This document shows positions 1,145 through 11,052 of a stretch of 23,666 nt of DNA, one piece after another. Below the pieces are notes generated by a model, which saw only the letters and a list, made by a program, of their open reading frames with translations, was not told where the DNA came from and searched no databases. This DNA comes from a virus (taxonomy: Duplodnaviria; Heunggongvirae; Uroviricota; Caudoviricetes). Made by a program: the position numbers and the translations under genes. The stretch lies in the IMG/VR virus record IMGVR_UViG_2617270998_000010; one strand, 5' to 3'. Numbering within the stretch: position 1 is the stretch's first letter; each line of letters begins with the position of its first letter.

Positions 1145-2089
1145 TTAATCTGTTTCTTTATCACTTCCAGTTACTTTAACTTTGTCTTTGATTGTATTCA
1201 AAAATGACGCAAAACTCGGTGGTTGCTCTGTCTGACCTGAAAATGCAGAGTCACCTGAAATATTCCAATCCTTAAAGACTTCTATTGCATCCTCTTTAGT
1301 TGCTGTAGAACCGTATATCTGCAAAAAAACTTGACCAAACATCAAAGCATGTCGACGATCTTTTCGCCTGATCGATTCATGTGTGTACTTTTTTGAGTTA
1401 CTAAGGCAGATATATGATAGCCATGAAAGAATGGCGATTCCAACTAATCCTCGCGTGAAGATATATATTAACTGAAGGTTAGTGAGATTTTTTAAATCTA
1501 AGTTCATGTATAATGTAAAAAAAGCAGATACTACTGCAAGGAAGCCAAAAAATACCCCTGCAATAGACCAGATAATAGACATCAATATAAAATGTTTGTC
1601 ATCACTACCAAGATCTGATTTAACATCGTTAACATAGGTGGGGATTTTATCATCGATTCTTTGTTGCTGTACTTGGCTACGGAGTTCCTTATTTTCACTA
1701 ATCAATGAATTAATTTGTTTTACGTTGTTTTCGATTATTGCGTTTTTTCTATTAAGATCCTGAGTATAATGCTCTAACTGTAGAGTTAATATGCTGTTTC
1801 GTTCTTCTAATTGTATTATATGTTCTACATAATTATTAGGTTCAAGTGATTTTACATTTTTTCTTTTATTGGCTTTATTTTCATTTATATTGGGTTCTTC
1901 ATCCATCGGTGGCCTAGTTATGTATTTTTCAATTAGCGCTAGGTTATTATGAGCTTCAGAAAGCTCTCCTGCTTCTATTAAGTCTTTTATATGAGAGTAG
2001 AAGTGTTTTGCTATATTTTCAGACTGTGAATCAAGAAATTCTAATAGGTGTTTTTTTATTTCGCTATCTTTATTGGTTGGTTCAGTCAT
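1145..2089 (-). CDS. Hypothetical membrane protein: N-terminal coiled-coil region, two predicted TM helices, short C-terminal domain; AT-rich insertion between cI and int
   Basis: 314-aa ORF. Hydrophobic stretches ILMSIIWSIAGVFFGFLAVVSAFFTLYM and LIYIFTRGLVGIAILSWLSYICL. Clearly lower GC than the flanking int and cI. Only 11 bp downstream of the cI stop on the same strand. No family recognised. Confidence 0.6.
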   Translation of the reverse strand: MTEPTNKDSEIKKHLLEFLDSQSENIAKHFYSHIKDLIEAGELSEAHNNLALIEKYITRPPMDEEPNINENKANKRKNVKSLEPNNYVEHIIQLEERNSILTLQLEHYTQDLNRKNAIIENNVKQINSLISENKELRSQVQQQRIDDKIPTYVNDVKSDLGSDDKHFILMSIIWSIAGVFFGFLAVVSAFFTLYMNLDLKNLTNLQLIYIFTRGLVGIAILSWLSYICLSNSKKYTHESIRRKDRRHALMFGQVFLQIYGSTATKEDAIEVFKDWNISGDSAFSGQTEQPPSFASFLNTIKDKVKVTGSDKETD

Positions 2090-2100
2090 GATGTTTCTCT

Positions 2101-3036
2101 TTATACATTTTTAGTAAAAACTCTTTTACATTTTGCCAAAACGATAATGTCAGTAAGTAAGCATTCAAAACTTGCGTTAGTGCCTACAACTTTAACCATA
2201 CCAACGGGTATGCGAGTCAAATCTTTGATACTTATTTTCCCTTCAATATTCACAAGCCACTTGCCATCAGTAACTTCATTAAATTTTGATTCTACAATAT
2301 ATATTTCCTCATCAATGAATACTGCTAAAGGTTGCAGAAAGGTTCCTTCTAACAACTTAGAGTCAAAAGTCAAGAAGGTTTCTTGAGCAAGAGATCCATC
2401 AATTATTTTATGATATGGGATAGTGATAGTATCGTTTCGAGGCTTTTCAAACATTGCCCCGTTACCAGTGGTTAGCCATGTTAATGAAGCACCGGTTTCC
2501 AGTGAGCATTGAATAATCCAGTCAGCAGGAAAGGTATCTCTCATGTAACGATTGGCTAATGTACTTTTTGATACACCAATATGATCAGCTAAAGCTTGTC
2601 TTGTCTTAAATCCATAAGCCAAAACGATTCGCTCTATTGCTGCTTTTCCACCTTGGTTAATAGTAAAAGAGTTCTCATTTTGGATGTCTTGTTCTCTATT
2701 GAGATGTTGATGCTTGCTGTCACAATTGTTGTGACTTTTTTCTGCATTATTTGTAATGCTTCCCTTCTCGGTATCAGTGCCAAATGCCAACCACTCGACC
2801 GGCACTCCAGTCTCCATGCTACAGATAACAACCCAATCAGCAGGGAAAGTGTCACGGGCATACCTGTTCGCCATTGTACTTTGCGATATACCTAGGTGAT
2901 TACAGAATGCTTGTCGGGAAGAAAAACCATAGGCTTTCAGTATCCGATCTATAACCGATTGCCCTCCGCGATTCTGCATGATTAAGGATTTCTTTTTTTC
3001 GTCCACATGGCGAAATGTGATTTCATGTGTTGACAT
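2101..3036 (-). CDS. cI: Phage 186 CI-type immunity repressor with a tandemly duplicated N-terminal DNA-binding domain
   Basis: 311-aa ORF. Two internal repeats (about res 23-88 and 128-195) each resemble the 186 CI N-terminal HTH domain (...AYGF..RQA...HLGISQST.ANRY.RDTFPADW...ETG....WL.TG). Divergent from the Apl/CII operon, as in 186. Confidence 0.8.
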   Translation of the reverse strand: MSTHEITFRHVDEKKKSLIMQNRGGQSVIDRILKAYGFSSRQAFCNHLGISQSTMANRYARDTFPADWVVICSMETGVPVEWLAFGTDTEKGSITNNAEKSHNNCDSKHQHLNREQDIQNENSFTINQGGKAAIERIVLAYGFKTRQALADHIGVSKSTLANRYMRDTFPADWIIQCSLETGASLTWLTTGNGAMFEKPRNDTITIPYHKIIDGSLAQETFLTFDSKLLEGTFLQPLAVFIDEEIYIVESKFNEVTDGKWLVNIEGKISIKDLTRIPVGMVKVVGTNASFECLLTDIIVLAKCKRVFTKNV

Positions 3037-3124
3037 AACCGATTTGTGATCCTATTCTCCGAAATGTGAAGTTAAAGCCACGATTAAAACTGACTCACCA
3101 CAAGCCAATAGGAGATGTTGCATC
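3037..3124. promoter_or_regulatory. Divergent cI / apl intergenic region: expected lysogenic/lytic switch promoters and CI/Apl operators
   Basis: 88-bp gap between the divergently transcribed cI and apl-like genes; AAATGTGA-like motifs recur at about 3012 and 3062. Assigned by position only; exact operators not resolved. Confidence 0.45.
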
Positions 3125-3346
3125 ATGACCCCTAACATTTCAATAACCCTGAATACGCCACATGTCACAATTGAGCGTTATAGCGAACTTACTGGTCTTT
3201 CAATCGACACAATTAACGATATGCTGGCTGACGGTCGCATCCCTCGGCATCGCCTTCGGAAAGACAAGAAAAGAGAAAAGGTAATGATCAACCTTGCTGC
3301 TCTTACCGTTGATGCACTTACTGATTGCAATGTTGTATTCAACTAG
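3125..3346 (+). CDS. apl: Apl/Cox-like excisionase and switch regulator (small HTH protein)
   Basis: 73-aa ORF, first gene of the rightward operon opposite cI and directly upstream of the CII homolog. Assignment rests mainly on position and size. Confidence 0.5.
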
Positions 3347-3378
3347 TTCCATTTTGGGATACATCAGAGGTGTCGACC

Positions 3379-3888
3379 ATGTTTGATTACCAAGTTTCCA
3401 AACATCCACATTTTGATGAAGCCTGTCGTGCATTCGCACTGCGCCACAATCTGGTGCAACTGGCAGAACGTGCAGGCATGAATGTGCAGATTCTGCGGAA
3501 CAAACTGAACCCAGCTCAACCTCATTTATTAACCGCACCAGAAATTTGGTTGCTTACCGATCTGACTGAAGATTCAACGCTGGTAGATGGTTTTCTGGCA
3601 CAGATTCATTGTCTGCCATGTGTTCCGATTAATGAGGTGGCAAAAGAGAAACTACCGCATTACGTCATGAGTGCAACCGCAGAGATCGGGCGTGTTGCTG
3701 CAGGTGCGGTATCTGGCGATGTAAAAACCAGTGCAGGTCGTCGTGATGCTATCAGCAGCATTAACTCTGTAACACGACTGATGGCGCTGGCCGCTGTTTC
3801 ATTGCAGGCCCGTTTACAGGCTAATCCTGCGATGGCGAATGCAGTTGATACCGTGACTGGCCTCGGTGCTTCATTCGGTTTGCTGTGA
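3379..3888 (+). CDS. cII: CII-like transcriptional activator (phage 186 CII family)
   Basis: Start at ATG 3379 (GAGGTG SD), inside ORF-track entry 3325..3888. N-terminus [24 protein letters not shown]...[17 protein letters not shown]...[21 protein letters not shown] matches my recollection of 186 CII closely; 169 aa. Confidence 0.75.
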
Positions 3889-8286: not shown

Positions 8287-8306
8287 TACTGTAAATATAA
8301 ACAGTG
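8287..8306. promoter_or_regulatory. LexA operator (SOS box) TACTGTAAATATAAACAGTG upstream of the tum/DinI-like operon
   Basis: CTGT-N8-ACAG with 17/20 identity to the consensus TACTGTATATATATACAGTA, about 40 bp upstream of the 8347 start; TATACT -10-like hexamer overlaps it. Confidence 0.6.
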
Positions 8307-8346: not shown

Positions 8347-8535
8347 ATGCAGGACTATTTTTTGGAGTCTTTGAAGCTCCAGCGCATTGATTTTTTTCTT
8401 AAGCTTGTAGCGGCTAGCGAGTGTAGTGATGAAGAGAAGGGGCTGGCTTTGCAGTGGGTTTCTGAATTGACTGATGAACTCATGGCAAAAATCAGAACCC
8501 ACGAATACAACCGCTCAATGGATGTCATCAGTTGA
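8347..8535 (+). CDS. Small SOS-regulated protein, possible Tum-like antirepressor
   Basis: 62-aa ORF with strong AGGAGG SD immediately downstream of the LexA box; equivalent position to 186 tum. Functional assignment is by context. Confidence 0.45.
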   Translation: MQDYFLESLKLQRIDFFLKLVAASECSDEEKGLALQWVSELTDELMAKIRTHEYNRSMDVIS

Positions 8536-8545
8536 GGTGACTTTT

Positions 8546-8779
8546 ATGCGCATTGAAATAATGATCGATAAAGAGCAGAAGATTAGCCAGTCTATCCTGG
8601 ACGCCCTTGAATCCGAGCTTTACCGCAATCTGCGCCCCCTGTATCCCAAAACGGTAATTCGTATCCGCAAAGGTAGCACTAACGGTGTGGAACTGACCGG
8701 ACTGCAACTGGACGAAGAAAGGAAGCAAGTGATGAAAATTATGCAGAAGGTGTGGGAAGACGACAGCTGGCTGCATTAA
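8546..8779 (+). CDS. DinI-family protein
   Basis: Start ATG 8546 (GAGGTG SD) inside ORF 8474..8779. MRIEIMIDK...DALESEL...ERKQVMKIMQKVWEDDSW parallels E. coli DinI (MRIEVTIAK...DALAGEL...KQRISEILQETWESADDW). Confidence 0.7.
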   Translation: MRIEIMIDKEQKISQSILDALESELYRNLRPLYPKTVIRIRKGSTNGVELTGLQLDEERKQVMKIMQKVWEDDSWLH

Positions 8780-9049: not shown

Positions 9050-9265
9050 ATGTCAAGCATCGCCGCATTTAGCCTGGGTAACCCAGTTGAACGTCTGGCA
9101 AGGGTTCTTAAAGAGAACCAGGACAAACTCAATCTTAGTAAAGATGGTTTTGTGTCCGTAGACTTGTCTAACAAAAGAGCAATGGATGCCATCAAGGCAC
9201 AGATGGATAAGCTTGAAGGCATCAAAACGAGCACTGTAAAAGAGAAAACTAATAGAACCAGATAA
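9050..9265 (+). CDS. Hypothetical small soluble protein (71 aa), first gene of a coupled accessory pair
   Basis: ATG 9050 preceded by AAGGGGGAG; predicted helical and charged; stop overlaps the next start (TAATG at 9263-9267). Confidence 0.5.
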   Translation: MSSIAAFSLGNPVERLARVLKENQDKLNLSKDGFVSVDLSNKRAMDAIKAQMDKLEGIKTSTVKEKTNRTR

Positions 9266-10107
9266 TGGCAACATTACTTTTAGCAGTGATTTTGGTTAGT
9301 GGTTTTATTTATGTAAACCTATCACTTTCAACAAGATACCGATATAAGCGTTCCAACGGCTGGGACGCTTATTTTTTTGTGGCTGCCTGGGGTATCGTTT
9401 TTTTTCTCCTTGGCGGTTTTTTCACCTTTATTTTGAACGTCAGCGGAGGGTTTCGTTTGCTGGCTAATGCCTTGAATCTAACACCTGACAGTTTTAATGG
9501 CATGTTGTCTTCATCGAAAGACAAACTTCAAAGAATAAATGAAATTAAACAGATAGCATGGGTTATGATTTCAATTGTCCTCGCTGCGATTTCAGGTTTT
9601 GGAAATAAGTTACGCACATCACGTGGAGATCGTCGCTGGGATGCCTTAGCTAAAGCTGTGGGTAATAACGCTTTCGAATCATTACTTATGGAAGCGTCCG
9701 CAAGACAGTTTCCGATCATAGCAACTCTGTCGTCTCGCAAAATCTATGTTGGCCTTGTTACTTGTCCGGCGTTAGAAAACGGGCTTTCAGAGCACCTTGA
9801 ACTTCTCCCGATGTTAAGCGGATATCGGGATAAAGATGATCTAACGATTAGTATCACGACTAACTATCACCAACATTATCTTGATAGTGGTGTGATAAGT
9901 GGAATGTCTCGGCTTAATATCGAAGATTTCCGTGTGCTCATACCAAAAGATGAGGTTGAAACAATTTCGTTTTTTGATACTGAGACATATAACAAATTTA
10001 AAGAAAATGAAGCCAGGGATAGAAAGAACTGTCGAAAGATTGGTAGTAAAAGTGCATCTTCGCGCAGCAAGCGTGCAGCAGATGCTGAGTCAAATGATCG
10101 TGCATGA
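9265..10107 (+). CDS. Hypothetical membrane protein (three predicted N-terminal TM helices plus about 160-aa soluble C-terminal domain with basic tail)
   Basis: 280-aa ORF. Hydrophobic segments at res 3-20, 35-57 and 95-112. AT-rich. Sits between the tum module and cos, the old/tin position of P2. No family recognised. Confidence 0.6.
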   Translation: MATLLLAVILVSGFIYVNLSLSTRYRYKRSNGWDAYFFVAAWGIVFFLLGGFFTFILNVSGGFRLLANALNLTPDSFNGMLSSSKDKLQRINEIKQIAWVMISIVLAAISGFGNKLRTSRGDRRWDALAKAVGNNAFESLLMEASARQFPIIATLSSRKIYVGLVTCPALENGLSEHLELLPMLSGYRDKDDLTISITTNYHQHYLDSGVISGMSRLNIEDFRVLIPKDEVETISFFDTETYNKFKENEARDRKNCRKIGSKSASSRSKRAADAESNDRA

Positions 10108-10353: not shown

Positions 10354-11052
10354 ATGGTTATGTTAGTGGATGACTGTCCACGATGTGGATCACAAAAAAT
10401 AGCGTTTGATGTTAATGGGCTGAATTGCACTAGGGTTTACAATGCATTGGGCGGGGGTAAAACATACGAGTACGAGGTCTATTGTGTTTGCCGAGAGTGT
10501 CATAAAACGACAATGTTTCTTTGCAGACCTTTAACGAAAAATAAAACTTTAGATGGCTATAATTGGAAAAGTGGAATATTCGGCTTAAAGGAAGTTGCAG
10601 AGGTTGTTAGGCCTATATCACCAGCAGACTTAGCAGTAGAGGAGCCACCAGAGTTCTTACCTGAGCATATCAATAGTGCATATGAGGAAGGGGCGAAATG
10701 TTTGGCTATAGGTTGTTATAATGCAGCAGCAACCATGTTTAGGCTTTGCCTTGATTATGCCACAAAAGGACTTCTTCCTGATGGGGAGCAAGGGCCTGCG
10801 CAAAAAATAAGGAGAAGCCTAGGGTTAAGAATGGAGTGGTTATTTGATAATCATCTACTGCCTGAAGCTTTAAGGGAACTAGCTGAATGCGTTAAAGATG
10901 ACGGAAATGATGGAGCGCATGAAGGTATTTTGGATAAAGCTGCTGCTGAGGATCTTGAAGATTTTACCTATCTTTTTTTAGAACGGCTTTACACTGAACC
11001 TCAACGCCTTATCGAAGCCAAGACAAGGCGTGAACAAAGAAGAAACAAATAA
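10354..11052 (+). CDS. Hypothetical protein: N-terminal Zn-ribbon (CPRCG...CRECH) plus C-terminal DUF4145/HEPN-like domain; accessory gene between cos and Q
   Basis: 232-aa ORF, ATG 10354 with GGGAGGAG SD. Two CxxC pairs in the first 50 residues. C-terminal alpha-helical region ending ...LAECVKDDGNDGAHEG resembles the GN-x-AH signature I associate with DUF4145. AT-rich; convergent with Q (stops 8 bp apart). Confidence 0.6.
   Translation: MVMLVDDCPRCGSQKIAFDVNGLNCTRVYNALGGGKTYEYEVYCVCRECHKTTMFLCRPLTKNKTLDGYNWKSGIFGLKEVAEVVRPISPADLAVEEPPEFLPEHINSAYEEGAKCLAIGCYNAAATMFRLCLDYATKGLLPDGEQGPAQKIRRSLGLRMEWLFDNHLLPEALRELAECVKDDGNDGAHEGILDKAAAEDLEDFTYLFLERLYTEPQRLIEAKTRREQRRNK

Follow-up and report, generated by a model that had tools for sequence, protein, structure and literature searches.

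How did a repressor of the phage 186 type come to carry two DNA-binding domains, and what does each of them read? The question is raised by the cI gene of the IMG/VR virus record IMGVR_UViG_2617270998_000010 (Caudoviricetes), which we analyzed as one stretch of 23,666 nucleotides (nt), called the window below. Phage 186 CI, a model system for cooperative repression in which the repressor forms a DNA-wrapping wheel, has 192 amino acids (aa) and one helix-turn-helix (HTH) domain, as an earlier reading of the DNA (the original prediction) had correctly stated. The window cI gene (positions 2101 to 3036, minus strand) encodes a protein with two such domains, of 311 aa if started at M1 or of 292 aa if started at M20 (codon 2977 to 2979). 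We consider it fairly probable that this protein is a chimera, in which a CI of one single-domain class (class B) captured the head, promoter, and operators of another (class A); the outer domain (N1) would read the lytic promoter region pR, and the inner one (N2) would still be a class-B reader.

The window CI is a 186-type repressor with an additional HTH domain

The cI open reading frame (ORF) is uninterrupted over 311 aa. Pfam recognizes two stretches of PF07022 (Phage_CI_repr; E = 3.9e-58) and one copy of PF16452 (Phage_CI_C; residues 206 to 304, E = 1.6e-26). N1 and N2 align without gaps over 65 aa (residues 22 to 86 and 127 to 191) at 58% identity (E = 1e-31), close to the value of about 60% first proposed. 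The structure of 186 CI (PDB 2fjr) covers only residues 133 to 308 of the window CI, so that one entire extra domain lies upstream, and N2 together with the C-terminal domain (CTD) matches residues 10 to 186 of 186 CI (E = 2.2e-28).

We then modeled the monomer with AlphaFold2, using an alignment of 40 two-domain homologues as input. Both PF07022 copies form helical domains (predicted local distance difference test [pLDDT] of 82 to 91), the polar stretch between them (residues 89 to 122) is disordered (pLDDT below 50), and the CTD is beta-rich (pLDDT 80 to 95). Since the predicted template modeling (TM) score of the whole is 0.39, the relative placement of the domains is undefined. The top match of the model in a Foldseek search of the PDB was 186 CI (2fjr, E = 2.8e-18), and the 186 CTD (2fkd_A) gave a TM-score of 0.93, normalized to target length, with a root mean square deviation of 1.6. 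Pfam, alignment, and model thus bear out the architecture that the original prediction had described, namely two homologous HTH domains of the 186 type, a polar linker, and a single CTD, and the alignment to 186 CI and the structure prediction it had called for yielded the extra upstream domain and two confidently modeled helical heads.

Read from its N terminus (all coordinates on the minus strand), the protein starts with a leader of class-A type (codons 1 to 21; 2974 to 3036), followed by N1 (residues 22 to 87; 2776 to 2973; pLDDT 82 to 89), with the recognition helix SQSTMANRY. The disordered polar linker (residues 88 to 118; 2683 to 2775) has no similarity to class A or B. Next comes a retained class-B N-terminal leader, now internal (residues 119 to 128, QNENSFTINQ; 2653 to 2682), which aligns to the class-B N terminus MSTSKYPNEIKINPNQGG. 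N2, of class-B type (residues 129 to 193; 2458 to 2652; pLDDT 85 to 91), has the recognition helix SKSTLANRY, and the protein ends with a class-B-type oligomerization domain (residues 206 to 311; 2104 to 2421) that belongs to PF16452 and has the 2fkd fold.

The Prokaryotic Genome Annotation Pipeline places the start of the gene at M20 (292 aa), as annotated in E. coli WCHEC020031. Codons 1 to 19 overlap an operator and the −35 hexamer of pR, so their translation is uncertain; the choice between M1 and M20 leaves the two-domain architecture unaffected. An internal start that would give an intact short N2-CTD form, which had been suggested as a check, is ruled out, since no in-frame ATG, GTG, or TTG is found between residues 84 and 138.

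Among the matches listed, the window CI gene is unchanged (100% identity); 113 complete E. coli chromosomes have it at 99% identity or more, and 7 Klebsiella phage records at 98.6%. Because a near-identical gene recurs in this way and about 45 clusters of proteins share the architecture (see below), an assembly artifact or an origin from two separate genes, either of which would have undone the original prediction, is excluded.

The window CI shares both Pfam families and the CTD fold with 186 CI (PDB 2FJR and 2FKD), with a PF07022 HTH domain at its N terminus. However, a canonical 186-type CI has one DNA-binding domain per subunit of ∼190 to 210 aa, whereas the window CI adds a heterologous second HTH domain on a disordered tether. 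It is therefore an architectural variant and not a canonical 186-type CI. The nearest designed counterpart that we compared is an engineered lambda-186 hybrid repressor (PDB 7JVT), which likewise places a foreign head on a 186-type CTD (matching window residues 216 to 308); in that protein the head was replaced, whereas the window protein gained a head and kept the original.

Each head is closest to a different class of single-domain repressors

We compared 47 two-domain with 72 single-domain CI proteins. By length and sequence, the latter fall into class A (∼207 aa; for example, P0091 from Salmonella) and class B (∼188 to 201 aa; for example, P0040 from Citrobacter, ∼198 aa); our literature searches found no experimental characterization of single-head CIs of either class. 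The N-terminal domains of class A are 65 to 80% identical to window N1 and 61 to 70% to N2, while those of class B are 70 to 87% identical to window N2 and 49 to 58% to N1. Within one protein, N1 and N2 share 44 to 66% identity across the two-domain set.

The class-A singles, with their one head, match the window in leader, N1, and pR operators. Window residues 1 to 89, including the 21-residue leader, align with class A from its residue 1 at 74 to 78% identity, and N1 by itself is 74 to 80% identical to class-A singles. The class-B singles, also one-headed, match the window in inner leader, N2, CTD, apl, and cII. The N-terminal domain of P0040 is 87% identical to window N2 and its CTD 57% identical to that of the window, whose identity to class-A CTDs is 31 to 36%. 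The class-B N-terminal leader is kept directly before N2 in all two-domain proteins, as illustrated by KFPIETSINPNKGG in a two-domain protein and MPTFKFPIEINFETGG in class B, or by NENSFTINQGG in the window and NEIKINPNQGG in class B. The retained leader, N2, and CTD together mean that a nearly whole class-B protein, from about its second codon, survives inside a larger ORF.

In neighbor-joining trees against the full single-domain proteins, N2 plus CTD joined class B, apart from class A, in 200 of 200 bootstraps. N1 grouped with class A in 61 to 69% of the bootstraps on a 70-column domain alignment, and N1 monophyly received 37% support.

The switch region is a mosaic of class-A and class-B DNA

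The mosaic extends to the DNA. We compared window positions 2101 to 3500 with class-A and class-B loci by blastn. Positions 2115 to 2683 are collinear with the class-B cI gene and reach within ∼5 codons of its ATG; 2684 to 2779, in the linker, match neither class; ∼2780 to 3074 (2805 to 3074 by blastn) resemble class A at ∼71% DNA identity; and 3077 to 3479 resemble the apl/cII side of class B at 78 to 88%. At the right junction (3070 to 3079), class-A homology gives way to class-B homology on the apl side, and alignment with the class-A prophage L283 places the end of class-A homology just past the third of the operators described below. In all, 393 nt in the window, a class-A module of three same-strand CGNNNTGTGA operators, pR, and N1, stand in place of the 62-nt class-B pR core. 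Each part is thus collinear with another parental lineage, and the DNA shows the breakpoints between the parts, as would be expected of a fusion chimera.

The genes are arranged in the order int, orf314, cI, then pR, apl, cII, and fil. This is the switch position of phage 186, with a leftward operon that ends in int and faces pR-apl-cII, and operators over pR, although no pL was located; 186 cI likewise has int on one side and the rightward operon pR-apl-cII on the other, and its start is overlapped by pR. To the right of pR, on the plus strand, are a class-B-type apl/cox-like excisionase-repressor gene (3125 to 3346; phrog_575, E = 9.6e-32; 78 to 88% DNA identity to class-B loci) and cII (3379 to 3888; Phage_CP76 in Pfam; the annotated homologue has 169 aa).

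The pR operators travel with N1

We predict a sigma-70-like pR at 3030 to 3058 (plus strand; TTGACA-17-TATTCT), the −35 hexamer of which is overlapped by the cI ATG. The motif CGNNNTGTGA occurs there in three copies on one strand within 60 bp, with two more copies elsewhere in the window. The three are candidate operators on the plus strand: O1 (CGAAATGTGA, 3011 to 3020), a same-strand repeat shared with class A; O2 (CGATTTGTGA, 3040 to 3049), in the promoter spacer; and O3 (CGAAATGTGA, 3060 to 3069), just past the −10 hexamer. O1 lies in the codons of the class-A leader, which also overlap the −35 hexamer. The rate of synonymous substitution (dS) in this leader is low (0.6), and the synonymous bases at T7 and H10, inside O1, are fixed, both of which fit an overlapping operator and promoter.

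A census over 118 nonredundant loci showed that the operator type follows N1. At pR, CGNNNTGTGA was present in all four class-A loci and in L283, in 33 to 44 of the 46 two-domain loci, and in none of the 60 class-B loci. The sequence CCCAWTTGGG (at most one mismatch), a palindrome resembling the 186 A-type site, was found at pR in 50 of the 60 class-B loci, in 0/46 two-domain loci, and in 0/4 class-A loci, the four class-A loci having a match ∼350 nt inside cI and not at pR. With the same tolerance, it had no match in the 23.6-kb window. Phage 186, by comparison, reads two operator types with one head, the A type (TCTCAATTGGGAGA) at pR and the B type (TTCAC-N5-GTGAA) at FL, FR, and pB; B-type sites were absent from all loci examined. 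Since N1 travels with the pR operators and the operator type of the N2 relatives is missing from the phage's own pR, we infer, on strong comparative grounds, that N1 is the head that reads the pR operators. The original prediction had offered a different binding specificity of the first copy as one option; the evidence fits it, in that N1 travels with an operator type unlike that of the relatives of N2.

The two heads of a subunit could also cooperate, forming a pseudo-dimer within one chain that reads composite, asymmetric operators, and so change the operator geometry. There are precedents for two modules in one chain. Engineered single-chain 434 repressors contain two DNA-binding modules in one polypeptide. 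The same is true of a monomeric two-domain mycobacteriophage immunity repressor, which binds asymmetric or composite sites (PMC9283540). The window pR sites are same-strand, nonpalindromic repeats, and in the model the flexible 34-residue tether would let N1 and N2 sit side by side. However, the three sites recur with identical spacing in the class-A phages, which have a single head; the layout is therefore independent of a second head, and no class-B half-site adjoins the CGNNNTGTGA sites. In the mycobacteriophage and 434 proteins, which belong to unrelated families and have another oligomeric state, both modules occupy one contiguous site, whereas the heads of the window CI appear, from comparison of the loci, to be matched to different operator families on a layout equal to that of single-head relatives. 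We therefore regard a pseudo-dimer as unlikely, and the changed operator geometry that had been anticipated is not seen at pR.

Two further sequences were considered as flanking CI sites and set aside. A perfect palindrome in the linker codons, GTCACAATTGTTGTGAC (2719 to 2735), lies 313 bp left of pR, at the position of 186 FL, and was a weak candidate; it occurs only in the sub-lineage of the window and is statistically not unusual. The sequence AGTTCCATTTTGGGATAC (3345 to 3362, plus strand), in the gap that separates the apl stop from the cII start, corresponds in position to FR/pE of 186. It is kept in class-A, class-B, and two-domain phages and hence is not class specific, which discounts it as an N2 site; all of these phages could use it as a shared site for CI or CII. 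The shorter CATTTTGG occurs in the window only at 2676 and 3350, and two matches are the chance expectation.

Two-domain CIs are widespread and have more than one type of N1

About 45 clusters (at 90% identity) of proteins 43 to 66% identical to the window CI keep the two-domain architecture, in Escherichia, Klebsiella, Salmonella, Citrobacter, Enterobacter, Kosakonia, and Edwardsiella. An exhaustive HMMER search of 1.84 billion representatives, with N2 as the query, returned 237 proteins at E ≤ 0.001, many of which, at 285 to 330 aa, show two matched stretches; the seven long proteins that were checked all have two PF07022 domains and PF16452. Named two-domain members come from Hafnia, Citrobacter, Edwardsiella, Enterobacter, and Shewanella. 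In most of them, N2 is 64 to 83% identical to a single-domain N-terminal domain, and N1 is remote (24 to 47% identity to N2).

Other lineages of N1 are found on the same inner half. Among the 45 N1 domains of the bootstrapped set, 11 belong to three of them: the P0024 type (nearest single-domain relative, P0086), the Edwardsiella proteins P0041 and P0042 (nearest, P0103), and the group of P0045, P0050, and P0062. All three have the class-B leader and N2 downstream, and in the two cases in which the locus of the nearest single-domain relative of N1 was fetched, the pR region resembles that relative. Either the fusion arose several times or a cassette of N1 plus pR was exchanged on a constant N2-CTD chassis.

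These comparisons bear on the tandem duplication of the DNA-binding domain that the original prediction had proposed. In that case, the N-terminal domain would have been duplicated in place and diverged, and the class-A singles would be unrelated or derived. The two heads are indeed homologous PF07022 domains lying side by side, and genuine local duplication also seems to occur in a distant lineage of the family, as the heads of P0199 and P0279 (both from Shewanella algae) and of P0245 are mutual nearest relatives at 66 to 68% identity. In the window lineage, in contrast, the copies (55 to 58% identical) are not each other's closest relatives; each has a far closer single-head relative than its partner. 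In addition, the 21-codon leader and the operators that accompany N1 are collinear with class A, N2 is still preceded by the full class-B leader, and the DNA mosaic has clear breakpoints. Even the diverged DNA repeat is barely visible: the two copies share 58% of their nucleotides in register, their third codon positions are at the random level (32%), and blastn sees the repeat over just 89 nt at 67%. Homology of the heads thus stands, and their local duplication in this lineage we judge to be improbable.

We found no description of a tandem-head 186-type CI in full-text literature searches. A 2011 survey of P2-like regulatory genes reports only longer couplers and longer C-terminal domains, and Klebsiella phage 4LV2017, which has the architecture, is annotated merely with a "repressor protein CI." We suggest that "CI" proteins of ∼290 to 330 aa merit annotation as a distinct architecture.

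Two variants of the locus were noted in passing. The single-domain protein P0083 (208 aa) combines a class-A head with a class-B-like CTD and clusters with two-domain proteins in the N2-plus-CTD tree; its origin may be a two-domain gene that lost N2 or a direct head swap. In the IMG/VR loci L190 and L191, tblastn matches the window CI over 1,203 nt, although the only called ORF is a 196-aa single-domain protein; cI may be interrupted or rearranged there.

N2 is conserved and probably still reads class-B-type DNA

We then looked into the selection acting on the two heads, using pairwise Nei-Gojobori ratios of nonsynonymous to synonymous substitution rates (dN/dS) among 30 distinct two-domain genes. 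The values were 0.04 for N1, 0.08 for N2, 0.81 for the linker, 0.41 for the CTD, and 0.46 for the class-A leader; dS is saturated outside this leader, and the ratios are rough, with only their ranking reliable. Both heads are under strong purifying selection. Across 40 two-domain proteins, the N2 helix SKST[LV]A[NT]RY varies little or not at all, and the window shares its exact sequence with class-B single-domain proteins. As judged from its low dN/dS and near-invariant recognition helix, N2 is not a decaying passenger.

A possible target of N2 lies within cI itself. In single-domain class-B genes, the class-B operator O1 lies in the leader codons, and in two-domain genes, which retain this leader, a relic of the operator is found ∼330 to 400 bp from the new pR, a distance comparable to the 305 bp of 186 FL. 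A sequence resembling the 186 A-type site thus survives only as this relic inside cI of related two-domain genes, while the pR sites of the window are CGNNNTGTGA repeats. The relic core TCTCAWTTGGG is intact in 14 of the 30 unique two-domain genes. In a table of the codons, which is more telling than the formal test but is not one itself, the relic bases C-CCA-AWT-GAG-A are fixed in seven diverged lineages, with the preceding residue varying among F, N, and S; in a formal test of synonymous conservation at the relic, only E121 could be scored, and it was not significant alone. In the window, the relic is degenerate (GTTCTCATTTTGGATG, 2671 to 2686, plus strand, ∼360 bp left of pR), its core TCTCATTTTGG (2673 to 2683) having one mismatch. 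A clade with ATRY instead of ANRY in the N2 helix has TTCGATAATGAAA at the relic position, a suggestive covariation of reader and site. N2 probably is still a class-B-type DNA reader.

Alternatively, N2 could be a passive relic or spacer, left by a fusion upstream of an intact gene and no longer able to bind DNA. No two-domain locus has a class-B operator at pR, the window lacks one altogether and has only a degenerate relic site, and P0083 is a chimera with a single head. Nevertheless, the dN/dS of N2 is an order below that of the adjoining linker, its helix equals that of presumably functional class-B single heads, and the architecture persists across lineages 43 to 66% identical and in other genera, all of which makes a passive N2 rather improbable.

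Our preferred reading, a class-B repressor with a captured class-A head, has to be weighed against several observations besides the roughness of the dN/dS ratios. The grouping of N1 with class A has just moderate bootstrap support on 70 columns, and the operators were deduced from comparison alone. Only three positions (Q/K, M/L, and A/M) distinguish the recognition helix of N1 from that of N2, and the specificities of the heads may overlap, by analogy with 186 CI, which reads two operator types with one HTH domain. On a position weight matrix built from 74 class-B sites, the window relic scores −0.3 and true sites at least 13.5; the best score in a scan of the window was 3.5, at an unrelated site at 571. 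With no class-B-type site in 23.6 kb, the genome of this phage offers N2 no clear target. The covariation of N2 helix and relic is confined to one clade and so amounts to a single evolutionary event, and P0083 suggests that N2 is dispensable.

The two-headed architecture and the mosaic of protein and DNA are shown by the comparisons above. On balance, residues ∼119 to 311 represent a complete class-B CI, with leader, N2, hinge, and wheel-forming CTD, to which a class-A N1 is fused upstream through a disordered linker of ∼30 residues. N1 would have arrived with its own leader, pR, and class-A operator set, displacing the class-B pR core, and by binding the three CGNNNTGTGA sites at pR it would set the immunity of the phage itself. 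N2 would still bind the class-B operator type TCYCAWTTGGG. Two kinds of targets are likely for it: the relic class-B operator inside cI, which could act like 186 FL on the same CI wheel, and the pR operators of superinfecting or coresident class-B phages.

The second target leads to a more tentative proposal, which we hold to be possible but doubtful, of a bivalent repressor with one-way immunity: N1 would control the phage's own pR, and N2 with the CTD would shut off the pR of incoming or coresident class-B phages. If so, class-B repressors could not bind the pR of this phage, which would grow on class-B lysogens, and N2 activity on class-B operators would broaden superinfection immunity and make it asymmetric. 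Such asymmetry would bear on the competition among the P2/186-like prophages common in clinical lineages of E. coli and Klebsiella. More broadly, capture of a head with its operators would be a general and recurrent route by which 186-like phages change immunity while keeping the old one, with immunity modules moving between phages by addition instead of replacement. Should the window CI form a 186-like wheel of seven dimers that wraps pR and the flanking sites, as the homology of its CTD would suggest, the wheel would have 28 heads, and two heads per subunit raise the question of how two specificities share one scaffold.

SOS boxes and accessory genes

A LexA box at 8287 to 8305 precedes an ORF of 62 aa (8347 to 8535; phrog_698), which is followed by a DinI-like ORF (ATG at 8547, to 8779). 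The window phage resembles 186 in having a predicted LexA-controlled SOS operon and no evident self-cleaving repressor. The layout resembles that of the split tum operon of PSP3 and Fels-2 (PMC3121763), and an identical 62-aa protein stands beside class-B single-head and two-domain genes, which could mean that N2 is kept as the docking site of an SOS-controlled antirepressor and the chimera stays inducible; this is very improbable, as the 62-aa protein does not resemble 186 Tum, a class-A prophage encodes it at 89% identity, and at least 80 IMG/VR contigs, with 41 different CI proteins among them, encode it unchanged (100% identity), so that it covaries with no immunity type and does not single out N2.

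Only two LexA boxes of this kind occur in the window (0.23 expected by chance). The other, a perfect box (TACTGTTTTTATATACAGT, 1086 to 1105), lies in the 76-bp gap between the orf314 stop (1145) and the int start (1068) and suggests that something at the int end of the lysogenic operon is under SOS control.

The 314-aa product of orf314 (1145 to 2089, minus strand; phrog_2628), encoded between cI and int, has a coiled coil and predicted membrane segments and gave no match in Pfam or PADLOC. The same slot is occupied in the related prophage L196 by an AAA_15/AAA_21 ATPase and a DUF4276 protein (PARIS-like) and in L197 and L198 by other ORFs without known function, and it looks like a variable cargo or defense hotspot. 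In E. coli WCHEC020031, ISKox3 is inserted beside orf314. Downstream of the SOS operon, an ORF of 280 aa (9265 to 10107; phrog_3630) neighbors the gene of a 232-aa DUF4145 protein (10354 to 11052, plus strand) that PADLOC matched weakly to PD-T7-4 (E = 1.2e-6), and this may be a second cargo or defense slot.

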